DNA of 40,099 nucleotides from Candidatus Aenigmatarchaeota archaeon (GTDB lineage Archaea; Aenigmatarchaeota; Aenigmatarchaeia; CG10238-14; SpSt-28). A model generated the notes under the pieces. That model saw only the letters and a program-made list of their open reading frames with translations, was not told the origin of the DNA and searched no databases. This document shows, in pieces, positions 4,147 to 40,099 of this stretch (position 1 is the stretch's first letter; the number at the start of each line of letters is the position of its first letter). A program made the translations under genes and the position numbers. The stretch lies in NCBI GenBank assembly GCA_044343155.1, contig JAVZSS010000002.1:1-40099 (forward strand), in the 5' to 3' direction.

Positions 4147-4314
4147 TTACTTACCATCACTTTCTAAAACCCATTTCAAAACCTTTATAGCCATATTAAA
4201 CTCATCTATATTTCTAATTCCAAATTCATTATACAACTCTATTTCAGTTTTAGCATTTAACAACTCCTTAAGTTTTTTCTCTATTTCTTCACTACTTCTC
4301 ACTTCAATTTTCAC
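4147..4314 (-). CDS. Possible small hypothetical protein (about 55 aa) abutting the nfi start
   Basis: The tRNA-free part of track ORF 4147..4389. An in-frame GTG at 4312-4314 gives VKIEVRSSEEIEKKLKELLNAKTEIELYNEFGIRNIDEFNMAIKVLKWVLESDGK. Its TAA (4147-4149) directly abuts the nfi ATG (4144-4146). No homology recognised and the start is uncertain. Confidence 0.25.
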   Translation of the reverse strand: MKIEVRSSEEIEKKLKELLNAKTEIELYNEFGIRNIDEFNMAIKVLKWVLESDGK

Positions 4315-4331
4315 CTCACTAAAACAAATCT

Positions 4332-4403
4332 TGGACCGGCCGGGATTTGAACCCGGAGCCTCCGCTTTGCAAGAGCGGCGATCTACCATTGATCTACCGG
4401 CCC
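4332..4403 (-). tRNA. tRNA-Ala (anticodon UGC)
   Basis: Reverse complement folds as a cloverleaf: GGGCCGG-TA-GATC-AATGGTA-GATC-G-CCGCT-CTTGCAA-AGCGG-AGGCT-CCGGG-TTCAAAT-CCCGG-CCGGTCC-A. The 7-bp acceptor stem carries G3:U70, the alanine identity pair. Anticodon loop is CU-UGC-AA. CCA is not encoded. Confidence 0.95.
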
Positions 4404-4431: not shown

Positions 4432-5445
4432 TTAAATTTTTCTTCTACTAATCCTTTCTATATTTTCACAAGCTTGCCTAACATGGCAACCTTTGCATAC
4501 TCTTTCTTTATAATTAGGTAGTTTTGATTTAGGAGGAATTTTCTTAGAAGAATAGATTTTGAATATTTTAGAAACAAGTCTCATAAAATTTTCAACATCC
4601 TTCTTACTAATTTCTATTTTAACTAGGTTGTTTGTTTGAGAATAAAAAATATATGATTGTTTTATGTTTGTTCTAAAATAGCTACCCAACAATAAAGCTT
4701 CACCAATACTTTGAATTAAATGCTCCTTTTTTATTCTTCCCCTATATGAAGCATGTTTTATTTCAATTGGATAAACTTCATTTTCTTTAAAACCTATCAA
4801 ATCTATAGATCCGATCATTCCCAATTTAATACTTATTATTGTTCTTTCTGGAACAATAAAATCAAAATTTTCTTTTTTTATTTCTTCCCAAAACCTTTTG
4901 AGCATACTTTCCATTTCTTCCTCCTTAATCTGAATTAATCCTTCAAATCTTTTTAAACCATACTCTACACTTTCTCTAACCAAAATATTTTCTTCTTTTT
5001 TACCAAAATTTTCAACAAAATTTTTAATAGATAAATGCAAAGCTTCACCATCCCAAACTTTACCTATTTTTTCTTTTTCTTGCTTTGCCAAAACTATTTT
5101 TTCTAACCAAAGTCTTCTAGGACATTGAAAAAATTTTGCAATTTCCAATGGAGTAAGAAACGATTTAGAATTGTATGAGAATTTTCTTTTTACTAAAATT
5201 TTTGCCTCCTCTATAATTTCATCTTTAATCTCTTCTTTTATTTTAATTATTCCTCTATTTGCTTCTACTATTCCTTTAATATTTAAATGCTGTAGTATTA
5301 TGAAAAGATAATCCGTAGAAATTACATTTTCTTTTATAAATTCTTTTTCAATTTCAAATAGTTTTACTTCTTTTCCAATAAACTTCTTTAAAATTTCAAC
5401 TGTCTTTTTAAAACTTTCTTCATCAAATTCTACACTAAACCTCAT
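4432..5445 (-). CDS. Cas4-family (DUF83) PD-(D/E)xK nuclease with 4-Cys cluster and an N-terminal winged-helix-like extension
   Basis: N-terminal Cys motif FQCPRRLWLEK, GEALH, nuclease core GSIDLIGF...VYPIEIKHASY (D...ExK), Q-helix EHLIQSIGEALLLGSYF, and C-terminal CKGCHVRQAC (CxxCx5C). The first roughly 95 aa (..YLFIILQHLNIKGIVEANRGII..) look wHTH-like. Confidence 0.75.
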   Translation of the reverse strand: MRFSVEFDEESFKKTVEILKKFIGKEVKLFEIEKEFIKENVISTDYLFIILQHLNIKGIVEANRGIIKIKEEIKDEIIEEAKILVKRKFSYNSKSFLTPLEIAKFFQCPRRLWLEKIVLAKQEKEKIGKVWDGEALHLSIKNFVENFGKKEENILVRESVEYGLKRFEGLIQIKEEEMESMLKRFWEEIKKENFDFIVPERTIISIKLGMIGSIDLIGFKENEVYPIEIKHASYRGRIKKEHLIQSIGEALLLGSYFRTNIKQSYIFYSQTNNLVKIEISKKDVENFMRLVSKIFKIYSSKKIPPKSKLPNYKERVCKGCHVRQACENIERISRRKI

Positions 5446-8010: not shown

Positions 8011-8295
8011 ATGAAAGAATATTTTCCACACGAAATATTTTTGAGATATAAACCTGCGAAACTACTTGTAACCTTGAGAGAAGGACCAAAAAATATAACA
8101 ATGGTCTCAAAAGCGGTTGATCTTACATATTCTCATACAATTAAAATTTTAGATTTACTTAATGAGTTAGGTATAGTTGAATTTGAAGAAAAGGGAAGAG
8201 TAAAAATAGTTAAATTAACAGACATAGGAGAAGATATAGCTAGAACTTTAGATTCTTTAATGAGTAAATTAAACAGGTTAAAGAAAAAACCTTAA
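8011..8295 (+). CDS. Small winged helix-turn-helix DNA-binding protein
   Basis: 94 aa. NITMVSKAVDLTYSHTIKILDLLNELGIVEFEEKGRVKIVKLTDIG shows an HTH plus beta-wing pattern (ArsR/TrmB/MarR-like). Subfamily not assignable. Confidence 0.55.
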   Translation: MKEYFPHEIFLRYKPAKLLVTLREGPKNITMVSKAVDLTYSHTIKILDLLNELGIVEFEEKGRVKIVKLTDIGEDIARTLDSLMSKLNRLKKKP

Positions 8296-8296
8296 A

Positions 8297-9223
8297 TTAC
8301 TCTTCTAAAATATACAAAGCTTTCATTCCCTTTTGATACCATTCCTTCAGTTGATTTTCCGTATATAATTCATATTCTTGTGCCAAATATCTTTGATGCC
8401 CCATCAATCTATCAACAATGGGTGCAGGAACTCCAGAAGAGATTAACTGTGTTTTAAACCATTTCCTTAAACAATGCGCATGTAAATTATATCTTTTACC
8501 AACTTTTTTTGCATATTTTTTAAAAGCTTTCTCTAGTAAATATTGTAAATTTTGGTAACTCATTTCTCTTCCATCTTCACTCGAAATTACTGGAGAGTTT
8601 TCGTTTATTTCTTCTCCAGCCATTTTTCTCTTTTCTAAATATTCTATTAGAAACCTTTTTGCTTCTGGCGTAATAAATGTTATTCTTGATTTTCTTTCTT
8701 TAGCTCCAATTCCTTTAATTCTTATAGTAGGAATTTCTTGATTTATATCAATATCTGAAATTTTTAGATTATGTAGTTCGCCAACTCTCATTCCACTAGA
8801 AGCCAAAAGTAATATAATAGTTTTTATTCTCAAATCGCTTTCTTCAACAATCCTTTTTAATTCTTCTTTGCTTGGTAAAACATCTTCATGAACATTAAAA
8901 ATTTTTAAAGGAATATCAATATCAACTTTTAAAGAATTGGCCTCAAAAAATTTCTTTAAGGCGGATATCCAGGCTGCAACTGATTTTGGAGCTAAATTCA
9001 TTCCAGCCAAATAAAGTGCATATTCTTTATAAATTTCATTTTGGTTTTGCTTTTGTTTAACTTCTTCTATAAACTCATCCAAATTTTGAATATTTTTATA
9101 TTCAACAAACTTTTTCAAACCCTTTAAATAAGTTAGCTTAGTATTGTTACTTCTAGTTAACAAATTCAACTCTCCAATCATTCTTTTTACGCTTTCAAAA
9201 TTTTCCAAATCTTTAGCTTTCAT
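8297..9223 (-). CDS. Tyrosine recombinase / integrase (XerA-like)
   Basis: Candidate catalytic residues are SSGMRVGEL (Arg I), HAHCLRKWF (His/Arg II), LMGHQ and a downstream Tyr (EYELY). The N-terminus has a SAM-like core-binding region (LTYLKGLKKFVEY). Confidence 0.75.
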   Translation of the reverse strand: MKAKDLENFESVKRMIGELNLLTRSNNTKLTYLKGLKKFVEYKNIQNLDEFIEEVKQKQNQNEIYKEYALYLAGMNLAPKSVAAWISALKKFFEANSLKVDIDIPLKIFNVHEDVLPSKEELKRIVEESDLRIKTIILLLASSGMRVGELHNLKISDIDINQEIPTIRIKGIGAKERKSRITFITPEAKRFLIEYLEKRKMAGEEINENSPVISSEDGREMSYQNLQYLLEKAFKKYAKKVGKRYNLHAHCLRKWFKTQLISSGVPAPIVDRLMGHQRYLAQEYELYTENQLKEWYQKGMKALYILEE

Positions 9224-10338: not shown

Positions 10339-11025
10339 ATGAAAACAGAAAATGTAATCGAACTAAAAAATGTATCTAAAATTTATAAAATGGATAACAA
10401 TGAAGTAGTCGCACTAAACAATGTAAATCTAAAATTTAGAAAAAGCGAGTTAGTAGCTATAGTTGGTCCTTCTGGATCTGGTAAATCTACTTTATTACAT
10501 ATTATTGGCCTTTTAGACAAACCAACAAAAGGAGAAGTTTTTATAGAAGGGAAAAGGACTTCTACGTTAAATGAAAAAGAAATATCAGAGCTAAGAAATA
10601 AAAAAATAGGCTTTGTTTTCCAATTTTTTAACTTATATCCTACTTTAACAGCTTTGGAAAATGTAGAATTACCTATGATGATTGCTGGTATAGATGAAAA
10701 AGAAAGAAAAGAAAGAGCTAAAAAACTATTAGAAGAGGTTGGACTAATTAAATTTAAAGATCATTTACCATCCCAACTTTCTGGAGGACAAAGACAAAGA
10801 GTTGCTATAGCTAGAGCTATGGCAAATGATCCATCTTATATTTTGGCTGATGAACCTACTGGCAATTTAGATTCAAAAAGCGGTGAAGAAATAATAAGAA
10901 TATTTAGAAATTTGAATGAAAAATATGGAAAAACTATAATTGTTGTAACTCATAATTTGGAAATTATTAAATATTTTAAAAGAATAATAAAAATAAAAGA
11001 TGGAAGAATTGTGGAGGATGAGTAG
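10339..11025 (+). CDS. ABC transporter ATP-binding protein (MacB/LolD-like)
   Basis: Walker A GPSGSGKST, Q-loop, signature LSGGQRQRVAIARA, Walker B ILADEPTGNLD and H-loop VTHN. Confidence 0.92.
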   Translation: MKTENVIELKNVSKIYKMDNNEVVALNNVNLKFRKSELVAIVGPSGSGKSTLLHIIGLLDKPTKGEVFIEGKRTSTLNEKEISELRNKKIGFVFQFFNLYPTLTALENVELPMMIAGIDEKERKERAKKLLEEVGLIKFKDHLPSQLSGGQRQRVAIARAMANDPSYILADEPTGNLDSKSGEEIIRIFRNLNEKYGKTIIVVTHNLEIIKYFKRIIKIKDGRIVEDE

Positions 11026-11026
11026 A

Positions 11027-12244
11027 ATGATTGAAATAAAGAAAATTTTATTGATTGTTATTCTTCTCTTTATTTTTACCCCATCTCTATCCGCTTTGCT
11101 AACACCAGCTTTAACATTTAATATATCTCCAAATCCAATTGTTTCCTTTCCAGGAACTGATGGCTATATTTACATTAATTTAAAAAATGTTGGTAATGAT
11201 TATGCTCAAGATATTAAAGTTGTTGCAATTAATATCGACCCTGGAATTGTATTGCCTTATGATAATGAAATTAAAATAGGTAATTTAGCACCAGGAGATT
11301 CAACTATTGTATTATTAAAATATTCTGTTCCAAATTCTATAGAAAGCGGATTATATAGAGTTAAAATAAAGATTGAGTATTGCCAAGAATCTAGTTGTAA
11401 AGATATTTATCAGTACGCTTTGATAAACGTACAAAGTCCATCAGCATTAAGAGTTAAATCTATATCACCAACAGAAATTAAAGTAGGTAATAGTGAAACT
11501 TTATACTTAACTATATCAAATGAAGGAAATTCTGAAGCAAAAAATATATTTATAACAATTAGAGATTTTAGTGGAAATCTTTTGACATTTGGCTCAGATA
11601 ACAAATACTATATTGAAAAACTTTCTCCAAAAGAAGAAAAAATTATAACATTTAATGTTTCTGTTTCTTCTTTAGCTAACCCAGGACTATATCCAGTTTA
11701 CATTTATGTAGAATATACAGATAAATCGAACTCAAGAATATTTATAAATTCTTCTTTTGGATTGAGAATTCGCGAAGATATTGATTTCTTTGTTGGTACT
11801 CAAGAAGTAAGTGGAAATTTAGTTACTATTTCCATAGGAAATATTGGATTATCAACAGCATATAGCGTAGTATTAGAAATTCCTTCACAGCCAAACTTTT
11901 ATTCTTCTGAGCCTTTAGTGTTTATAGGCAACATAAATCCCGGAGATTACACTTCTGTTTCTTTAAATATTTATCCCGCAAGAACAAATGAAAGCGAAAG
12001 AAAATATAACAATAGTTTAAAAATTTACCTTTACTATACTAATGAAAAAGGAGAAAGAGAAAAAGTGGAAAAAATTATAAAAATTAATCTTGAAAGAAAT
12101 ATAACCTCAACCTATTTTACTCCTAGATTTCAGCAAAAATCTCAAACCGAACCTTTTTATTATTTGAAATATATTATCGCAATTTCGATTATAATTTCTC
12201 TAATTTTACTTCTTTACAAACTTAAAAAAGGAAAGAAAAAATGA
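11027..12244 (+). CDS. Secreted, C-terminally membrane-anchored protein with three CARDB/S-layer-like beta-sandwich repeats
   Basis: N-terminal signal-like helix ILLIVILLFIFTPSLSA. Three related roughly 100-aa modules each end in ..GLY.V.I.IEY / ..GLYPVYIYVEY. C-terminal TM YIIAISIIISLILLLY plus KKGKKK, with many N-x-S/T sequons. The start is set at ATG 11027, 9 nt after GGAGG at 11013-11017. The track start at 11000 or ATG 11018 is also possible. Confidence 0.65.
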   Translation: MIEIKKILLIVILLFIFTPSLSALLTPALTFNISPNPIVSFPGTDGYIYINLKNVGNDYAQDIKVVAINIDPGIVLPYDNEIKIGNLAPGDSTIVLLKYSVPNSIESGLYRVKIKIEYCQESSCKDIYQYALINVQSPSALRVKSISPTEIKVGNSETLYLTISNEGNSEAKNIFITIRDFSGNLLTFGSDNKYYIEKLSPKEEKIITFNVSVSSLANPGLYPVYIYVEYTDKSNSRIFINSSFGLRIREDIDFFVGTQEVSGNLVTISIGNIGLSTAYSVVLEIPSQPNFYSSEPLVFIGNINPGDYTSVSLNIYPARTNESERKYNNSLKIYLYYTNEKGEREKVEKIIKINLERNITSTYFTPRFQQKSQTEPFYYLKYIIAISIIISLILLLYKLKKGKKK

Positions 12245-13503
12245 AGCTGCTAGATTTATTTAAATTATCATTAAACAACATCTTGCACAGAAAGTTAAGA
12301 AGTTGGCTAACAATTTTAGGAATTATTATAGGTATTGCCACAATAGTTTCTTTAAATGCTATAGGAGAAGGAATGAGAGAAAGAATAAATCAACAATTAG
12401 CTGGTTTGGGTCCAGATATAATTACTATTACTCCTGGTTATATTAGAGCGTCTCCATATCAGTTTGAAAGATACATGCAAATAATTAGAGGATTAAGAGG
12501 TGAAGAAAAAACCCTAACAGAAAATGATGCAAAAATAATTCAAAATATTCCTGGTGTGTCTTATGTTAATACAATAGTTTCTGGTAGAGGTAATGTATCT
12601 TTCAAGGGTCAATCTATTTCATTAACTATTCAAGGAGTAGATGCTTCGGTTTGGAAATACATAGAAATAACTCAAATAGAAAAAGGAAGATATCTTTTAT
12701 CAAATGATAAAAATGTTGCAGTTTTGGGGAATAGAGTTGCCTATTCTATTTTCAAAAACGAAATTAGGGTTGGCGATATAATAAATATAAATGGTGAATC
12801 CTTTAAAGTTGTCGGTATATTGCAGCCAGCAGGAGCATTAAGCGTTTTAACAGATTCTGCTATTTTTATTCCAAAAGAAGATGCGAGAAGAATTTTAAAA
12901 TTAAACAATAAAGATGTTTCTTCTATAGTTGTCAAAGTAAATGATGTATCTCAAGTAGATGATATTGCAAAAGAAATTGAAAGAAGGCTTAGAATTTTCA
13001 GAAAAGTTAATGAAAACAATCAAGATTTTACTGTAACCACAACACAACTAATTAAGCAACAAGTTATGAGTATTGCAGAAACGACAACACTTTTTTTAAC
13101 ACTAATTGCTGCTATTTCTCTTTTGGTTGGTGGGATAGGAATTGCTAATACTATGTTTACTTCTGTAATGGAAAGAACAAGATTAATAGGAACATTAAAA
13201 GCTCTTGGAATGACTAATAAAGATGTTATGGTTTTATTTATTTTAGAATCGATAATACTTAGCTTAATTGGAGGAATATTAGGAATTTCGGTTGGTATTA
13301 TTGTTTCAGATTTAATAGGTAGAATAACTATTTTTGGAATTGGAATGACAAGCAGAACAAGTCAAGGAATTCAACTAGTAGTAACGCCCCAAATTGTTTT
13401 TCTTTCTCTTATTTTTTCTATATCTATAGGTGTTTTGGCTGGTCTAATACCTGCAAGAAGAGCCGCAAAACTTCAGCCTGTTGAGGCATTGAGATATGAA
13501 TAA
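12241..13503 (+). CDS. ABC transporter permease, FtsX/MacB family
   Basis: TM1, then a large extracytoplasmic domain, then three C-terminal TMs containing the FtsX-type block GIANTMFTSVMERTRLIGTLKALGM. ATGA overlap with the upstream gene. Confidence 0.88.
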   Translation: MKLLDLFKLSLNNILHRKLRSWLTILGIIIGIATIVSLNAIGEGMRERINQQLAGLGPDIITITPGYIRASPYQFERYMQIIRGLRGEEKTLTENDAKIIQNIPGVSYVNTIVSGRGNVSFKGQSISLTIQGVDASVWKYIEITQIEKGRYLLSNDKNVAVLGNRVAYSIFKNEIRVGDIININGESFKVVGILQPAGALSVLTDSAIFIPKEDARRILKLNNKDVSSIVVKVNDVSQVDDIAKEIERRLRIFRKVNENNQDFTVTTTQLIKQQVMSIAETTTLFLTLIAAISLLVGGIGIANTMFTSVMERTRLIGTLKALGMTNKDVMVLFILESIILSLIGGILGISVGIIVSDLIGRITIFGIGMTSRTSQGIQLVVTPQIVFLSLIFSISIGVLAGLIPARRAAKLQPVEALRYE

Positions 13504-33525: not shown

Positions 33526-34407
33526 TTATAGATAGCTTAAAGCCTTTTTTACAGCATTTATTGCTTCTTCCCAATTTGGTGGACTTTGAGTTAAGTTATT
33601 AATAGCCGTATCAATCTGACTATAATAATCATTATGAAAACCAGCGAAGCTCTTCGCTACATTTAACTCATTTACTGCGCCCTGAGCCTGACGATTTCTT
33701 ATCTCAGATAGTGCATTTTCTAAACGCCTTCTAGCTTCTGCTCTCCATCTTCTACCCATAGCTTCATATTTTTCTTTTTCTACAAATCCATATCCTCTAA
33801 AGAAAACAGACAAAATAAACGTTGCTGCAAAAACAACTACACTCCAAATGCCACTAAAAGAAAAAACAACCCAAACAATCTTTACAAACCAACCAACTGG
33901 AATAGTTAGAAATGTAATTATAAATGCTAATATCCTGTTTACTCCACTAGGAACCCCCTCAAATATTTTTATCGTTGTTAAAAAAGCCCAAACGATTGTG
34001 TATATTCCAGCAAATGGTAAAATAAATAAATAAATTATTGCTGGTAAGTACATCCATTCAGGAGGTAACCCAATCATTGTTAAAACTTGAACAACATAAG
34101 AAGGAAGTGGATGCAATTTCAAACTTTCAGGAACTTCTAAGTAAGAAGGATAAGGTACAAATTGAGGAATTACAAATAAAACAAGTAAAATAATTATAAA
34201 TAAAACCAAAAACCAAGGAACTTTTCCCCCACCTGGTTTAATAACACCACCAATCCAAAGTAGTATTAAGACAAAAGCCAAAATAAGTCCAAATACAAAT
34301 ATTGCTCCTAATATATCATTTGTATCTGTAACCCCTTGAGAAAAAACTGGATTAAATAAAATTAATAAAAGAAACGCCAAATAAATAAAAATTTCTTTTA
34401 GCTTCAT
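33526..34407 (-). CDS. Polytopic membrane protein (signal/TM1 plus about 6 TMs) with a helical cytoplasmic C-terminal domain; unknown family
   Basis: Hydrophobicity pattern read from the translation. The C-terminal roughly 75 aa are soluble and Arg-rich (GRRWRAEARRRLENALSEIRNRQAQG...). No motif recognised. Confidence 0.6.
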   Translation of the reverse strand: MKLKEIFIYLAFLLLILFNPVFSQGVTDTNDILGAIFVFGLILAFVLILLWIGGVIKPGGGKVPWFLVLFIIILLVLFVIPQFVPYPSYLEVPESLKLHPLPSYVVQVLTMIGLPPEWMYLPAIIYLFILPFAGIYTIVWAFLTTIKIFEGVPSGVNRILAFIITFLTIPVGWFVKIVWVVFSFSGIWSVVVFAATFILSVFFRGYGFVEKEKYEAMGRRWRAEARRRLENALSEIRNRQAQGAVNELNVAKSFAGFHNDYYSQIDTAINNLTQSPPNWEEAINAVKKALSYL

Positions 34408-34421
34408 TAAGTTTTTTACTT

Positions 34422-34676
34422 TTAATATTTAAATTTTTTCCAATAACCGAGAAAACTAGCAACTATAAAAATTAATAAGAAAATAATTGCAAACAAAGAA
34501 AAAAATACTTTAATTGTATCACTATAGAGATATAAAATTAGCAAAATTGTCAAACAACTAACTATACTTATTACTAAGTTTATATTCTTTGTAAAAAATC
34601 TAATTCTTTCCAAAATACCAAAAATAATTAGAAATGACAAAAAAGAAAACAAAATCAAAAATATATCTTCAATCAT
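34422..34676 (-). CDS. Small 3-TM membrane protein, unknown
   Basis: 84 aa, almost entirely hydrophobic. Packed 2 nt after the upstream ORF stop and 14 nt before the next start. Confidence 0.45.
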   Translation of the reverse strand: MIEDIFLILFSFLSFLIIFGILERIRFFTKNINLVISIVSCLTILLILYLYSDTIKVFFSLFAIIFLLIFIVASFLGYWKKFKY

Positions 34677-34678
34677 AG

Positions 34679-35179
34679 CTAACCAACTATCTCTTTAGCT
34701 TTTTTATACCATTCTTCCTTTTCTATATCTTTTCCTATTTTTTTACTTAATATTTCTAATTTTTCTAGTAAATCTTTTATAGCCCTCCTTTTTTCTTCAC
34801 TTTTTTCTTTTTCATATTCAGAAATAAGTTGCTTGATTTTTGCCACTAAAACATCATAATTTTCTCCTATTATTTCTAATTTTGACATAGAATGCTTAAA
34901 AATTCCATAAAAATATGTAAAAAAGAATATTAGAATAGCAAAAATTCCTGAAAAAATGGGAAAAAATTCTATTATTCCTAAAGAGTATAAAGAGTAAATG
35001 GATAAAGCAGAAATGGATAAAGAAGCTAATGAATAATAAAGAGAATTTGCTTTTTTTTCCCTACTATCAAAAATTCTTGATTTCTTTAGAAAAATAAAAA
35101 TAATCAAATAAAATAGAAGAAAGGAAAAAAGAAGAGTTATTAAAGAAGAAAAATTTCCAAAAAGTAGTTCTTCATCCAT
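34679..35179 (-). CDS. 3-TM membrane protein with a C-terminal coiled-coil domain, unknown
   Basis: 166 aa. TM segments are followed by KIKQLISEYEKEKSEEKRRAIKDLLEKLEILSKKIGKDIEKEEW. Confidence 0.5.
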   Translation of the reverse strand: MDEELLFGNFSSLITLLFSFLLFYLIIFIFLKKSRIFDSREKKANSLYYSLASLSISALSIYSLYSLGIIEFFPIFSGIFAILIFFFTYFYGIFKHSMSKLEIIGENYDVLVAKIKQLISEYEKEKSEEKRRAIKDLLEKLEILSKKIGKDIEKEEWYKKAKEIVG

Positions 35180-35227
35180 AGAAATTTTTACGTTTTAAGT
35201 TTTAAATGAGTTTTCTTAATTTTTCTT

Positions 35228-36565
35228 ATGCTACCCGAAGAAATAAGAAAAGATATTATTCTAAGGAAAAGTGAAACTAATAAAATATTAGTTTATATAG
35301 TAGTTTTCTTTTTATTAATCATAATTGTTTCAATAGTATCACTTTTTATTATATATCCAAGTTTATGGTATAGAACATGTAAAAATATTCCTTTACTTTC
35401 TTCACCTTTTATATGTAATCCTATAGAAGTAAAAATTATCACAGAAAAATCTCCACCAATACCAAAGAGTAGTGGTGTGTCCCCTTACTTATATGCACCA
35501 AAAAATATATATTGTGGTAAAAATTATAAATTTGGCTTTTCTTTCCTAAATAATTATGAAGAAGATATTTCTGTAACCTTTGTGCCGGTTATTTTAAGCA
35601 GTAAAGGCAACCTAGCATTATATACAGAAGAAATAAGCGGAATTTTATTGAAACCTAAAAAATCTTTCCAATCATCATTTTCTTTCGAAATAGACGAACT
35701 AAAAGAGTGGAAAGAATCTTGTGAATGGACTTCAGAGGAAATAGCAGAAGTAAAGAAATTTTATACTATTGAGGAAAATGGAGAAAAAATATATCAGTTT
35801 GATAAAATAGAGTGCTCAAAAGATAAAAAATGTCAAGAAGGATATTTTTGTGGAAAGGAAGAAAAGTATAGATGTATTTGTCTTAATTGGGAAAATATTA
35901 CATGTAATCCAAATAAGTTAACTTTAAGTTTGTTTTATACTCATTCTGGAGTTTTTCGTGCAATAGTACCTCTCTATTATACTTCTTCTGAAAGAGTTAC
36001 ACCACAAACAATAACACAAGAACCTATTAGCGTTCAAATAAAGTTAATTCCTAACCCATATGATCCACAAAGCTCTGTTCAAAAAATTGAGGTTTATCTA
36101 AAAATAAAGAGTTTAAGCGGTAATATAGAAATTAATGAAATTAAAGTAAGTCCCCTTCTAACAAAGGTAATAACAAAAAACAAAGAAAGTGGAATTGTAG
36201 TTGAAGAAACAATAGGATCTACTCTATTAGAATGTAAAAGTATAAAAGAAGCATTCGAAACGAATAAAATAGAGGGCGGAAAAGAAATTGGAGGAACTAT
36301 CTGCTATCTTTCTCCTCCTACAATACAAACAATAGTAAAAGAAGAAGAAAGAGAAGAAAAACTTAATATATCCTTTAATGAAATTTCTTCTTTTTGTAGC
36401 AGATATAAAATCGGAGCTATTTGTAACAAAGAAATGGTAAGTAAGGGAGATTTGAATAAAATAGAAGGGGCCATGAGAGTTATGAATGTTGTTGTTGAAA
36501 TTAAATATACGAGAGAATATTCGGCTTCTCAACCATTAACAATAGCTAAAAATGAAAAAGAGTGA
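35228..36565 (+). CDS. N-terminally membrane-anchored, cysteine-rich extracellular protein, unknown family
   Basis: 445 aa. A roughly 20-aa cytoplasmic N-terminus, then TM ILVYIVVFFLLIIIVSIVSLFIIY, then an ectodomain with about 16 Cys. It includes the dense block ECSKDKKCQEGYFCGKEEKYRCICLNWENITCNPNK. Confidence 0.65.
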   Translation: MLPEEIRKDIILRKSETNKILVYIVVFFLLIIIVSIVSLFIIYPSLWYRTCKNIPLLSSPFICNPIEVKIITEKSPPIPKSSGVSPYLYAPKNIYCGKNYKFGFSFLNNYEEDISVTFVPVILSSKGNLALYTEEISGILLKPKKSFQSSFSFEIDELKEWKESCEWTSEEIAEVKKFYTIEENGEKIYQFDKIECSKDKKCQEGYFCGKEEKYRCICLNWENITCNPNKLTLSLFYTHSGVFRAIVPLYYTSSERVTPQTITQEPISVQIKLIPNPYDPQSSVQKIEVYLKIKSLSGNIEINEIKVSPLLTKVITKNKESGIVVEETIGSTLLECKSIKEAFETNKIEGGKEIGGTICYLSPPTIQTIVKEEEREEKLNISFNEISSFCSRYKIGAICNKEMVSKGDLNKIEGAMRVMNVVVEIKYTREYSASQPLTIAKNEKE

Positions 36566-36568
36566 AGA

Positions 36569-36892
36569 TCATCCTTGTCCTAGTAAATAGATAGTCACAA
36601 ACCAGTCACAAAAATCTCTACATTGAGTACTTTCCCTATCTCCCGAATCTATACAAGCTAAAACATCACTATCTTTACCATATTCTTTAAAGTAGGGTGC
36701 ACAAGTTCTTGGAATACTTGATGGATCGTAACCTGGAGTATTACACATATTTCTTATTTTTGCTTCACAATTTGACTTAGTAGACATTAACTCGAGAGGA
36801 TTAACACCTCTAGTTAAAAAAATAACAAGCAAAATTGCGATAACTATAACAGCAAACACTAAAACCATTGTAAAGGAAACGTCTCCTTTCAT
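36569..36892 (-). CDS. Small Cys-rich type IV pilin-like protein (class III signal MKG|DVS)
   Basis: MKGDVSFTMVLVFAVIVIAILLVIFL followed by a 7-Cys domain containing C-x7-C (CEAKIRNMC) and CRDFC. Confidence 0.6.
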   Translation of the reverse strand: MKGDVSFTMVLVFAVIVIAILLVIFLTRGVNPLELMSTKSNCEAKIRNMCNTPGYDPSSIPRTCAPYFKEYGKDSDVLACIDSGDRESTQCRDFCDWFVTIYLLGQG

Positions 36893-36923
36893 TAGATTAT
36901 ATTTGTTTTTTTATTTATAAGTT

Positions 36924-37478
36924 TTATGAAACTAACTTTGTTAATACTTTGTTAATCTCTTCCACAACACTTTTTAGCTGAGTGTAATTTCCATTTTCTT
37001 CAATAAAAGAAATAGAAGTATTGGGATTTCCAAAAATTGTAAACGAATATGTAGAACCCTTATAAGAATAAGTTATTAATTGGGGGGAAGTAAAAGTTAT
37101 CTCAATAGTTATATTATCTTGAGAAGATATTTTTATATCTCCATTCGGAACCTTTATCCCGCTAACTTCTTCTAGCTTTTTTCTATATTCACTAAAAATT
37201 CGGGAAACATTTGAAGTAAAGCTTTGAAGATCCTGTATTTGTGAAAAATTTTTATAACCTAATTCTTTCATAGCTTGTCTATAAGAAAAGAATAAAGCGT
37301 AGCCTAAAGACCTTTCTACCACGTTTATTATATTTGAGATGGAATAAATTTCACCTTCCCTTGCAAGCTCTTGAAAAGTTAGATACTTATGGAATACAAT
37401 ATTTAACAAATATCCCATAAATAAAAGACCGCAAAAGATTATAACAACAAAAACTAAAATACCGCCGTATAATCTCAT
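36924..37478 (-). CDS. Pilin-like protein with an N-terminal hydrophobic helix, unknown
   Basis: MRLYGGILVFVVIIFCGLLFMGYLL. Five N-x-S/T sequons in the mature part. ATGA overlap with the upstream gene. Confidence 0.55.
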   Translation of the reverse strand: MRLYGGILVFVVIIFCGLLFMGYLLNIVFHKYLTFQELAREGEIYSISNIINVVERSLGYALFFSYRQAMKELGYKNFSQIQDLQSFTSNVSRIFSEYRKKLEEVSGIKVPNGDIKISSQDNITIEITFTSPQLITYSYKGSTYSFTIFGNPNTSISFIEENGNYTQLKSVVEEINKVLTKLVS

Positions 37479-37888
37479 GAAGTCACCAAAACAATTTTTT
37501 CTACCATTCCATATTCATATGGTCTAAAAATATATACATAACCCTCTCTTCCTTTAACGCTTTCATTACCAACTAAAGTAGTTGTTTCATTAGTTATTTT
37601 AAACTCTTTATCTCCCAAAAAGATTTTAGTTTTCTCTTCTATGAAAGTTTTAAATTTATCAAAATCTATACTTTCTCTTTCGCTTAGAATCATATATATG
37701 TTTTTGTAAAGATCATAATTATAAAACAATAACTCAGATAAAAGAAGTTGATTATTGTTGTATTTATACTCTGAAATTACAGTTATTGCTAAATGATATT
37801 TGAAAGAAAGAAGCGCTATCACAATTGCAGCTATTATAACTATATTTACTATAAGACCTATTATTAATATATCAATAATAAAACTCAT
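37475..37888 (-). CDS. Pilin-like / N-terminally anchored small protein, unknown
   Basis: MSFIIDILIIGLIVNIVIIAAIVIALLSF. ATGA overlaps on both sides. Confidence 0.5.
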   Translation of the reverse strand: MSFIIDILIIGLIVNIVIIAAIVIALLSFKYHLAITVISEYKYNNNQLLLSELLFYNYDLYKNIYMILSERESIDFDKFKTFIEEKTKIFLGDKEFKITNETTTLVGNESVKGREGYVYIFRPYEYGMVEKIVLVTS

Positions 37889-38601
37889 ATGACTTCACCT
37901 ATTAAAACAGACAACCTACCAACATGGGTTGTCCCGTTATTATAGTAAATAAGCACTGGAAATCCTTCTGAAGATATAAAAGATTTGGAAAACAAAAGCT
38001 GAGAATTTGATGGCATCGTATTCTCTATACACTTTTCCCAATCATATGGTTGGACTAAATTAAATACTGCAGATACAGGATTTCCTATATTCGTTATAAC
38101 TCTTATTACTGTTCCGAAATCTAATTTAATATTTTCTACTATGCATTCTATAAACTTAGAAAAAAATAGCCCATCAATGGAAATGGGAGAATAAATCCTA
38201 CCTAACCAACCGAAACATTTATTATCTTCACAAGTCTCTAGATCGATTATTCTTATTATTATAAGAGAGTTTGGATAGGTTACTCCAATATCTATTGGTG
38301 TAATTAGTATTTTGACTAGCCTATCTATATGAGTTATTTCCGTCGTATTTAGAAAAATTTTATCTAACTTCTCCGCATCTAATATTCCTCTCCAAATCAC
38401 ATTTCCTTTACCTAATACTATGTTTTCGTTAGAAATTAAATTGAGAGCATAATTTATTGTTTTTCTTTCAAGTGAAAACTCCTTAATAGTTACATGCATT
38501 TCTAAATAGCGTGACATAAAAAAATAATAAACAAAAACGATAATAACAATAATAAATATGGCAATAAACACATTTTGAGTAGTTAAGACAACCCCTTTCA
38601 C
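37885..38601 (-). CDS. Pilin-like protein (GTG start, leader (M)KG|VVL), unknown
   Basis: GTG at 38599-38601, one nt after the upstream TAG. KGVVLTTQNVFIAIFIIVIIVFVYYF helix and a 4-Cys mature domain. Confidence 0.55.
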   Translation of the reverse strand: MKGVVLTTQNVFIAIFIIVIIVFVYYFFMSRYLEMHVTIKEFSLERKTINYALNLISNENIVLGKGNVIWRGILDAEKLDKIFLNTTEITHIDRLVKILITPIDIGVTYPNSLIIIRIIDLETCEDNKCFGWLGRIYSPISIDGLFFSKFIECIVENIKLDFGTVIRVITNIGNPVSAVFNLVQPYDWEKCIENTMPSNSQLLFSKSFISSEGFPVLIYYNNGTTHVGRLSVLIGEVI

Positions 38602-38602
38602 A

Positions 38603-39010
38603 CTATTCGCCTTCTATTTCATAAACAATATTTCCGTCTATAATTTTTTTCCTAAAAATAAATTTCTTAACATTGTCTTTCTGATAATTAAGGTCTATGA
38701 TGATGGGCTGTTTTGAAGAAGTTTTTTCTGCATAGCTTGGCGCCGATTTAAGATCAATCTTAACTAAATAATTACGAACATCAATTGAATATAATAAATC
38801 CTTAGAGGGAACATAAACTACTTCACCACTATATGTAGAAGCTATTGCCGCAATAAAACCAGCAAATTGTCTTGCCACATTTTCAGGAGATGAAAGAGCA
38901 AGCAACTCAATTATAGAAGAAATTATAGGAATTAATGCAACAATTACAATTATAAATGTAATCAAAAAAACTCCAATAATACCAACAAACTCTGAAACAT
39001 CACCCTTCAT
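38603..39010 (-). CDS. Pilin-like protein (class III signal MKG|DVSEF), unknown
   Basis: ATG 39008-39010 gives MKGDVSEFVGIIGVFLITFIIVIVALIPI, with a leader identical to the 36892 gene. The track start at 39019 is a GTG three codons upstream. Confidence 0.6.
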   Translation of the reverse strand: MKGDVSEFVGIIGVFLITFIIVIVALIPIISSIIELLALSSPENVARQFAGFIAAIASTYSGEVVYVPSKDLLYSIDVRNYLVKIDLKSAPSYAEKTSSKQPIIIDLNYQKDNVKKFIFRKKIIDGNIVYEIEGE

Positions 39011-39015
39011 TTTTT

Positions 39016-39282
39016 TCACTTAAACAATTTTTCGCATTCCTCTTTAGTTGGTTCCACTATATTATAATTTTCACATCCTTTTTTAGGATTTATATCTTCC
39101 CATTTCACTTTTTCCCCACCAATGATAGAAAGACAATAACTAATTAGTTTATTTCTACACGCGGTTTCACTTACACTTTCTGAAAAACCTGAAAACCATT
39201 TCCAAAAAACTATTATACCCATAATAGTAAAAAACCCTATCAAAATGGTTACAAAAATTGCGTGTTGAGTAATACATCTCAT
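39016..39282 (-). CDS. Small Cys-rich N-terminally anchored protein, probable paralogue of the 36569..36892 product
   Basis: MRCITQHAIFVTILIGFFTIMGIIVFW, then C-x7-C (CRNKLISYC) and two further Cys. Abuts the upstream gene stop. Confidence 0.55.
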   Translation of the reverse strand: MRCITQHAIFVTILIGFFTIMGIIVFWKWFSGFSESVSETACRNKLISYCLSIIGGEKVKWEDINPKKGCENYNIVEPTKEECEKLFK

Positions 39283-39981
39283 TTAAGCACCTACCAGCTT
39301 TATCAAAAAGTATTGTGTGCTACCAATAACTTTGCGTAGTGTAATTATAGATCTTTGTCCATTAGAAACTTCTATAAAGGAATGCGATTGACCTAATGGA
39401 ATAGAAACAATAGGAGAGATGTAAAGCGTGCAATCTCCTTCAGGAAATTTAGCAGATACAACACTATCTTGCGCATTTAGAATTATTTTTGTTGAAAGTA
39501 TTAAAAGGGGGGCTGAGCCAGTTGCACTAACAAGGGCCTTTTCAAATAGTTCAGAATTAACTAACAAACAATCTAAGCCCCTTTTATTTCCAACGCTTAT
39601 TAATTTTGATAAAGTTTCACCCAATCTTTCATTTTTTTTAAGATTTATAGATACTGGAAAATTAGGACTACATACAGTTTTCATGTTCTTATCTTCATAA
39701 GTATCTTCAGGTATATTATTACAAAAATCTTTACATTTAACCAATTTTCCATCTTCTCTCCAAGAAATTTTCTCAACTTCTGCACTCATGCATCCATATG
39801 TGCATCTATAAAGAGAGCATAACACTGCAGATTCTATACTAGTTGGTTTTTTTTCAAACCCTAAAAAAGAAAATATTTCAGAAAGCAAATGTCTTGATGA
39901 AGTAAAGATAATATATAGAGCTATACCAACTATAATTACTCCAGCAATTAAAAAAACAGGAACTGTTGAAACTCCTCCCAT
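39283..39981 (-). CDS. Cys-rich pilin-like protein (leader MGG|VST), unknown
   Basis: MGGVSTVPVFLIAGVIIVGIALYIIF. The mature domain has 8 Cys, including CSLYRCTYGC and CKDFC. Confidence 0.6.
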   Translation of the reverse strand: MGGVSTVPVFLIAGVIIVGIALYIIFTSSRHLLSEIFSFLGFEKKPTSIESAVLCSLYRCTYGCMSAEVEKISWREDGKLVKCKDFCNNIPEDTYEDKNMKTVCSPNFPVSINLKKNERLGETLSKLISVGNKRGLDCLLVNSELFEKALVSATGSAPLLILSTKIILNAQDSVVSAKFPEGDCTLYISPIVSIPLGQSHSFIEVSNGQRSIITLRKVIGSTQYFLIKLVGA

Positions 39982-40099
39982 TTAATCTAATATTTTTCCG
40001 AATTTAAATAAAATCTAACAACCAAAAATAAATCCAACCCAACCCAATTTTTCACACATGCTTCTTTTCAAATTTTCAAGAGAGAGAACAAAAAACTGA

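Follow-up and report, generated by a model that had tools for sequence, protein, structure and literature searches.

Positions 36569-39981 of contig JAVZSS010000002.1, from a Candidatus Aenigmatarchaeota archaeon, carry seven co-directional genes on the minus strand, which we name P1 (36569-36892) to P7 (39283-39981); the window analysed here is the whole contig, 40,099 bp long. We interpret these seven genes as most of a pilin module of nine genes belonging to a type IV filament (TFF) system typical of Aenigmatarchaeota, a reading to which we give a probability of roughly 80%. The window has a GC content of 28% and is archaeal, as it encodes Spt5-NGN, L10P with the archaeal insertion domain, an archaeal-type GAPDH, FtsZ, SecY, and Alba. 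A first-pass annotation of this DNA had proposed a novel surface filament of pilin-like subunits. The type IV pilin-like character of the subunits is upheld by synteny, by the signal motif, and by the structure model of P4, but the filament is not novel in kind: the locus extends the known type IV filament superfamily and is not a new kind of machine.

All seven open reading frames (ORFs) are present at the positions first proposed, and their junctions, read from P7 to P1, are 0, 5, 1, -4, -4, and 31 nt, in agreement with the overlapping and abutting genes and the single 31-nt gap described before. In the N-termini below, an arrow marks the boundary between the leader and the hydrophobic helix. 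The first gene of the series, P7 (39283-39981, 232 amino acids, MGG↓VSTVPVFLIAG...), encodes a Cys-rich pilin-like protein, and P6 (39016-39282, 88 amino acids, MRC↓ITQHAIFV...) a small four-cysteine pilin-like protein with a degenerate motif that has Cys at position -1. P5 (38603-39010, 135 amino acids, MKG↓DVSEFVGIIGV...) has an alternative GTG start at 39019, which gives MKKMKG↓, and P4 (37885-38601, 238 amino acids, starting with GTG, MKG↓VVLTTQNVFIAIF...) is the best-supported pilin-like subunit. P3 (37475-37888, 137 amino acids, MS↓FIIDILIIG...) is pilin-like with a K-G motif that has been lost in this lineage, P2 (36924-37478, 184 amino acids, MRLYG↓GILVF...) is pilin-like and belongs to a size-variable family, and P1 (36569-36892, 107 amino acids, MKG↓DVSFTMVLVF...) is small, Cys-rich, and pilin-like, with 100% conservation in the related strain L002.

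Every one of these proteins has exactly one strong N-terminal hydrophobic segment (19-residue Kyte-Doolittle mean of 2.7-3.4), which bears out the short polar leader followed by a hydrophobic helix that had been noticed in each ORF. An N-terminal hydrophobic helix is found in 13 of the 61 non-overlapping ORFs of the window, 11 of these 13 forming the contiguous block 33526-39981, and an M-K-G start occurs in three of the seven module genes and in none of the 54 other window ORFs. The strain L002 (Logan SRR21619495) keeps all seven frames intact, with no indels and with 86-100% amino-acid identity. The intact frames in L002, together with the clustering of helices and M-K-G starts in one block, indicate that P1-P7 are real genes and that the pattern goes beyond chance. 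Synonymous and non-synonymous codon differences between the window and L002 are near equal in number (28:33 and 40:31, for example), which, on a rough reading of codon counts rather than a formal ratio of substitution rates (dN/dS), would fit moderate purifying selection on the module genes. In base composition the module is like the rest of the contig, and in other genomes it shows synteny with chromosomal genes such as Alba, so that a mobile element or provirus is not favoured as its source.

We also observe that divergence from L002 (2516-5927, aligned with 36569-39981 of the window) is stepwise along the module. P7, P6, P5, and P4 are 86-89% identical, and P3, P2, P1, and the convergent 445-amino acid gene that follows them are 97-100% identical. 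This suggests either a recombination breakpoint near the P4/P3 junction or faster-evolving proximal pilins.

The seven genes had been described as ORFans. Word-index homology searches with P7 and P2, which recovered same-species clusters only, would alone suggest the same, but the full HMMER search with P4 overturns this view, since it returned 90 representative clusters at E ≤ 1e-3, of which 47 at E ≤ 1e-10, among 1.84 billion representatives. These homologues are mostly full-length (210-300 amino acids). They include an 87%-identical protein in an NCBI metagenome-assembled genome (MAG) labelled Candidatus Aenigmatarchaeota, members in Ca. Aenigmarchaeota archaeon ex4484_224, and one family member named "pseudopilin PulG" by IMG. 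The P4 alignment (A1) shows a near-invariant K2 and then a Gly right before the hydrophobic helix, and a head domain with the conserved elements ER(H)xINLANVL, RGVxDxxKLD, YPNS, DLE, W132, C153, C191, and GFPVxIRY..G..H.GR.

All seven proteins have syntenic orthologues. When the window proteins were compared by BLASTP with all ORFs of related loci (numbered with the prefix L), the best matches were significant and strictly collinear, with the best P4 orthologue at 3e-65. P7 orthologues were found in L005 (3e-18), L010 (5e-18), and L006 (2e-16), in addition to the 86%-identical protein of L002, and the C-terminal size of this family is highly variable (232-784 amino acids). P5 has orthologues in L005 (9e-26) and L006 (1e-19; alignment A3), P3 in L010 (5e-21) and L004 (3e-11), and P2 in L010 (8e-30) and L006 (3e-20), the P2 family ranging from 163 to 468 amino acids. 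The P6 orthologues (8e-24 to 5e-12), which occur as one to three tandem copies in other loci, share invariant C42, K45, C50, C70, and C83 (alignment A5), and those of P1 (L004, 1e-7; L011, 3e-6) share invariant C42, C50, C64, and C80 (alignment A6). Profile-profile comparison of the P1 and P6 families with hhalign gives a probability of 97.4% (E 1.2e-11), with a C-x7-C spacing in common, which makes P1 and P6 paralogues and not two unrelated proteins.

The synteny extends to a motor. In related archaeal loci, same-order orthologues of all seven genes stand behind an ATPase gene and a platform gene, in the order ATPase (PF00437, T2SSE), platform, mini1, mini2, P7, P6, P5, P4, P3, P2, P1, and then a convergent gene, W445. 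This full order is seen in L003, L005, L006, L010, and L011 and in the GTDB loci L012-L017, L020, and L023, and at least 15 Aenigmatarchaeota genome loci have the module with its genes in this order. Component sizes in the P4-bearing contigs vary little (ATPase, 738-748 amino acids; platform-like protein, 642-653; mini1, about 42; mini2, 51-65), and the P1-like gene is followed there by one or two large proteins encoded on the opposite strand. In many Aenigmatarchaeota species, the complete order was recovered by twelve family hidden Markov models run against six-frame ORFs of the loci. A platform alignment scan of one genome per GTDB species found relatives in 208 genomes, and the best 80 of these 208, two complete chromosomes among them, belong to Aenigmatarchaeota (33-100% identity) and then to Woesearchaeota and Nanoarchaeota (27-31%). 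Among the 45 loci with at least 6 kb past the platform gene, 23 have at least four class III-like ORFs in the run that follows it, a number that most Woesearchaeota loci do not reach.

Some of these genomes deserve a remark of their own. Two Aenigmatarchaeota MAGs carry two full locus copies on separate scaffolds (L014/L015 in JAWBPV..., L016/L017 in JAWBTN...). For the contig JAVZGQ010000002.1 (L006/L012), the protein record gives "Ca. Methanomethylicia archaeon" but the genome title gives "Ca. Aenigmatarchaeota archaeon", one family member is labelled Heimdallarchaeaceae (L008/L009), and many platform-bearing third-party annotation MAGs are labelled "uncultured Methanosarcinales". These conflicting labels likely correspond to mislabelled DPANN bins.

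The operon is longer than the seven genes first described, and contains at least nine pilin-like genes. Upstream of P7, L002 has two further pilin-like genes, mini1 (38 amino acids, MKG↓ISEGVYKIV...), which comes first, and mini2 (60 amino acids, MKG↓LEMEIVKFIIL...GC). The window ends inside mini2, of which it holds the 3' end (40015-40098, minus strand), that is, 27 codons and a stop with the translation QFFVLSLENLKRSMCEKLGWVGFIFGC, cut by the contig end and matching the C-terminus of L002 2300-2482. The mini2 family, whose best orthologue in the related loci scores 2e-15, is kept after the platform gene in L003, L005, L006, L008, and L010.

The ATPase of the related loci passes the Pfam T2SSE cut-off, and it is closest to A. 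fulgidus GspE (2oap, 1e-28), CpaF (5e-19), and FlaI (2e-16). The protein of about 645 amino acids encoded next to it has seven predicted transmembrane segments, and its position, size, and topology lead us to infer a FlaJ/TadC-type platform.

Class III cleavage-site prediction, which had been set beforehand as a refuting test, found such sites. The FlaFind-type pattern that we used, [KRDE][GA][ALIFQMVED][ILMVTAS], is matched in the window by P1, P4, and P5 only, in P1 and P5 as KGDV, while P7 (MGG↓V) and P2 (MRLYG↓G) come close to it and P3 (MS↓F) and P6 (MRC↓I) do not have it. A class III signal in all seven proteins, as first claimed, thus holds canonically for P1, P4, and P5 and, across all nine families, at the family level, but not for P2, P3, P6, and P7 of this genome. 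In the nine families, most orthologues have [K/R]-[G/A/S] at the helix boundary. Among full-length representatives of the P4 family, 81 of 84 have [KR][GA] there. The leaders range from 2 to about 25 residues, MKG commonly makes up the whole leader, and KGQ is often seen at the boundary. Gln at position +1 is thus found in many P4-family members and in none of the seven window proteins, where D or V takes this position. The orthologues of the divergent window proteins begin with MKKG↓, MRKG↓, MGKG↓, or MKG↓ (P7), with MRG↓, MKA↓, or MSKG↓ (P6), with MKA↓, MGLKG↓, MVLGKG↓, MKGQ, MKKG↓, or MSKG↓ (P3), and with MKG↓ or MKS↓ (P2). Because the orthologues of all nine families mostly keep the motif, the degenerate N-termini of P3, P6, P7, and P2 are best read as lineage-specific departures from an ancestral class III-type motif.

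The AlphaFold2 model of P4, built from a 42-sequence alignment, is confident (predicted local distance difference test, pLDDT, 91.3; predicted template modelling score, pTM, 0.81) and predicts a helix over residues 2-56 that carries an alpha/beta head, the "lollipop" architecture of a pilin. The pilin fold that the earlier proposal called for is therefore partly recovered, as helix and globular head are present in the P4 model, but the head is alpha/beta and without a neighbour among solved pilins.

The same machinery could build a short pseudopilus of the type II secretion system (T2SS) or Gram-positive Com type, serving as a piston for protein secretion or for the uptake of DNA or nucleotides, a possibility that we regard as unlikely. 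An ATPase, a platform, and a run of small pilin genes is indeed the layout of the comGA-GG genes of the Com pilus and of the T2SS pseudopilins (GspG-K), and here too the subunits are single-copy and fixed in order, with no single obvious major pilin. In Com and T2SS systems, several low-abundance pilins are thought to prime assembly. The locus described here differs from both in its archaeal-type leader, [K/R]-[G/A], to which no +5 Glu rule applies, in an ATPase of the archaeal GspE2/FlaI/TadA branch, and in head domains that have no sequence or structural similarity to theirs. DPANN archaea need imported building blocks (PMC8407114), which would suit an uptake function, but no DNA-binding, nuclease, or ComEC-like channel gene is found in the loci, and P7 and P2, which are Cys-rich and vary in size, resemble adhesin-type modules, as does the large surface protein encoded convergently.

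Several results weigh against a type IV filament and are shared, in part, with the view that P1-P7 are ordinary, unprocessed single-pass (signal-anchor) proteins of a membrane complex, with the K-G motif and the adjacent ATPase being incidental. The canonical cleavage motif is missing in four of the seven window proteins. No match to Class_IIIsignal/DUF361, Pilin_N, or the archaeal flagellin N-terminal-like family was found for P1-P7 in Pfam (E ≤ 1) or NCBIfam (E ≤ 10), and a Pfam scan of 42 P4-family members gave no match to a pilin or class III model. Since these models are short and the HMMER filters strict, the missing matches lower the case for family membership, not that for the mechanistic reading. 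P4, P5, and their family profiles found no pilin among PDB sequences, and a Foldseek search of the PDB with the P4 model had a best E of 0.41 with no pilin among the matches, so that the P4 head is not a recognisable known pilin domain; the single-sequence AlphaFold2 model of P5 (pLDDT 51) is confident for the N-terminal helix only. The similarity of the platform protein to T2SSF is sub-threshold (E 0.015), and its profile had no match among PDB sequences.

The processing and assembly machinery is also at issue. Searches of the 40-kb window found no ATPase, platform, or A24 peptidase, as the first-pass annotation had remarked. For the ATPase and platform this is explained by the contig ending inside the operon, and the puzzle of pilins without a machine is thus largely an assembly artefact. 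In the closest relative, L002, the gene upstream of the module encodes a protein of more than 720 amino acids and not a platform, and for this reason the motor linkage in this very genome is unproven; the motor genes may be encoded at a greater distance upstream or at a separate locus. None of the 37 polytopic proteins encoded within 10 kb of the related loci matches Peptidase_A24, with only M50, SPP, EamA, Zip, and exosortase-type proteins being found.

The signal-anchor explanation can appeal to the missing motifs, family matches, and peptidase and to the richness in membrane proteins of the whole block 33526-39981. We nevertheless judge it very unlikely, as the motif sits at the exact helix boundary family-wide in proteins that share only about 25% identity, the operonic linkage with a T2SSE ATPase and a platform is strict in at least 15 loci, and the continuous 55-residue helix predicted for P4 far exceeds what a membrane anchor needs. 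A degenerate archaellum (motility) operon is rejected as highly improbable: the ATPase does score against the NCBIfam FlaI model (E 9e-35) and FlaI structures, and FlaG, FlaI, and FlaJ annotations are reported in Aenigmarchaeota (PMC8407114), but the FlaI score is 120 bits for a cut-off of 550, the ATPase has an extra N-terminal region of about 290 amino acids, no archaellin or FlaH/KaiC-like Pfam match was found in the window module, the 42 P4-family members, or the L003 module, and archaellin, FlaF/FlaG, and FlaH/KaiC-like families are all absent from the precomputed Pfam marks for L003, L006, L010, and L011.

Two intergenic gaps within the operon may carry promoters. The gap before P7 (39982-40014, minus strand, 33 nt) has a TATA-like box, TTTTATTTAAAT, about 25-30 nt upstream of the P7 ATG, a putative internal promoter for an mRNA that would be leaderless or have a short leader. 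A P7-proximal gap of 28-47 nt with TTTAAAT/TTTATTT-type boxes is found at the same position in L002, L006, L008, L010, and L003. The gap before P1 (36893-36923, minus strand, 31 nt) has a TATA-like box, CTTATAAATAAAAA, about 25 nt upstream of the P1 ATG, which might be a separate P1 promoter, and a gap of 29-49 nt with TATA-like boxes ahead of P1 is the sole conserved gap in the distal half of the module (L002, L004, L006, L008, L010). The gaps and their boxes suggest three transcription units, possibly with a higher expression of P1. Caution is needed in reading the boxes as promoters, because AT-rich boxes are common in a genome of 28% GC.

Past P1 lies the convergent gene W445 (35228-36565, plus strand), which encodes a membrane-anchored, Cys-rich surface protein of 445 amino acids, an associated component that accompanies the module in all full loci. 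Its orthologues are convergent just past P1 in L006 (4e-53), L010 (2e-52), L004 (3e-31), L008 (5e-26), and L011 (3e-14), and it has no family match in Pfam or NCBIfam. It is followed by three membrane-protein genes on the minus strand, 34679-35179 (166 amino acids), 34422-34676 (84 amino acids), and 33526-34407 (293 amino acids), which belong to a multi-copy family with about five transmembrane segments, found together with the ATPase and platform in DPANN loci. A Jackhmmer search started from a Woesearchaeota member collected 125 ORFs in 41 loci, with the 166-, 84-, and 293-amino acid proteins of the window at 9e-10, 2e-4, and 2e-15, respectively; by BLASTP, the last of these has a best match of 6e-61 in the related loci. 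Orthologues of the three genes follow in the same downstream order ahead of Alba in L006 and L010, and in L006 and L011 Alba comes after the locus, as in the window.

Proteins of this five-segment family are about 185-200 amino acids long, with the recurring motif G(F/L)xD(V/F)(V/L)LPFLL.F..VFA.L(E/Q)KT.I(F/L)G, and stand in two to five copies per locus beside the ATPase in the 41 DPANN loci (L006, L010, L024, and L035 among them). Neither the family nor the window proteins of 33526-35179 match a Pfam family, and the family may be an unrecognised accessory component of the pilus system.

The protein of more than 720 amino acids encoded directly upstream of the mini-pilin genes in L002 (3-2165, plus strand) is Cys-rich and has a GGGGGG linker. 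It has no Pfam match, none of about 90 related loci encodes a homologue, and it may be a lineage-specific adhesin inserted between motor and pilin genes. A genome-contig scan with P7, and metagenome-contig scans with P7 and with this protein, returned no contigs that extend upstream in this lineage.

Elsewhere in the window, we observe a further surface-related operon at 10339-13503 (plus strand), composed of an ABC ATPase, a CARDB-domain surface protein with an N-terminal anchor, and a MacB/FtsX-type permease. At 8011-9223, a tyrosine recombinase of 308 amino acids, with Phage_integrase and archaeal integrase domains, adjoins a small winged-helix protein; the recombinase may be XerA or else mark the border of an integrated element. 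A Cas4/PD-(D/E)XK nuclease-like gene (4432-5445) lies beside a tRNA-Ala gene (4332-4403), and the 80-amino acid ORF at 4147-4389 (minus strand), which overlaps this tRNA, is probably no gene.

Among known systems, the closest parallel is with archaeal type IV pilus-like systems that have several minor pilins, such as the Epd pilus of Methanococcus maripaludis ("clade/system 1", PMC4858521), where one operon likewise combines an ATPase, a platform, at least five class III-signal proteins, and large surface proteins. The two are alike in short leaders ending in K-G, and Gln at +1 (KGQ), the rule in Epd substrates, is often present in the P4, P3, and P2 families, though not in the seven window proteins. 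Nevertheless, the locus described here has a single platform gene of about 645 amino acids where Epd has two, has no EppA-type peptidase or FleN/MinD ATPase, has no match to DUF361/Class_IIIsignal or another pilin model, and places two ultra-short pilin-like genes (38-65 amino acids) after the platform. Archaeal type IV pilus loci commonly contain at least five minor pilins, large adhesins, and Cys-rich components, and some other archaea have their pilin genes and their ATPase/TadC genes at separate loci (PMC4858521).

The setting is also that of the "dark-matter" islands of DPANN genomes (Makarova, Wolf & Koonin 2019, PMC6393860, Fig. 2A), where unannotated small signal-peptide proteins adjoining a FlaI-like ATPase and TadC were predicted to be fast-evolving pilins. 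Beyond that prediction, the present work gives an explicit account of the families and their fixed order, with motif statistics and one confident structure model. Type IV pilus genes were noted in thermal Aenigmarchaeota MAGs (PMC8407114), and a 2026 census records TFF systems 1 and 4A among DPANN archaea, system 1 in some of them (10.64898/2026.04.22.720090).

For the type IV filament that we favour, we infer the following processing and polymerisation. The proteins would insert into the membrane via the N-terminal hydrophobic helix, and the leader would be cut after [K/R]-[G/A], as in the MKG↓ of P1, P4, P5, and the mini-pilins, by a class III (prepilin) signal peptidase encoded elsewhere. 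A FlaI/TadA-type hexameric ATPase and the FlaJ/TadC-like platform would then pull the helices from the membrane and stack them into a helical fibre. Nine subunits in fixed order might form a priming or tip complex of "minor" pilins, in which P7 and P2, with their size-variable C-terminal domains, would probably be adhesive modules. The shaft would be made of one or two small subunits, for which the mini-pilins or the four-cysteine P6/P1 type are candidates, the latter because P1 has a promoter-like gap of its own. Such a filament may attach to surfaces or to a host cell, and adhesion or host contact is a plausible role in a DPANN archaeon.

More tentatively, and with the balance of probability on the other side, the locus may represent a DPANN-specific type IV filament subtype beyond the current classes (arCOG; MacSyFinder systems 1, 2, 4A-I). 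Such a subtype would be defined by a platform too divergent for Pfam T2SSF, nine ordered subunits including two ultra-short ones of 35-60 amino acids, heads that lack a solved structural relative, a dedicated multi-copy five-segment membrane family, and the conserved convergent surface protein.

Aenigmatarchaeota are tiny, probably host-dependent archaea. Little is known of the means by which DPANN archaea cling to their hosts, and the annotation of their surface proteins is mostly "hypothetical". With the present analysis, a "dark" block of 11 genes becomes a pilus-type locus that is defined and widely conserved, with nine families, an order, a motif, and partners. The same genes can now be annotated in hundreds of MAGs and become targets for metaproteomics, cryo-electron tomography, and heterologous assembly. 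If the DPANN-specific subtype is real, it would be a possible organelle for host attachment or exchange in Aenigmatarchaeota and, with other pilins, in Woesearchaeota and Nanoarchaeota.

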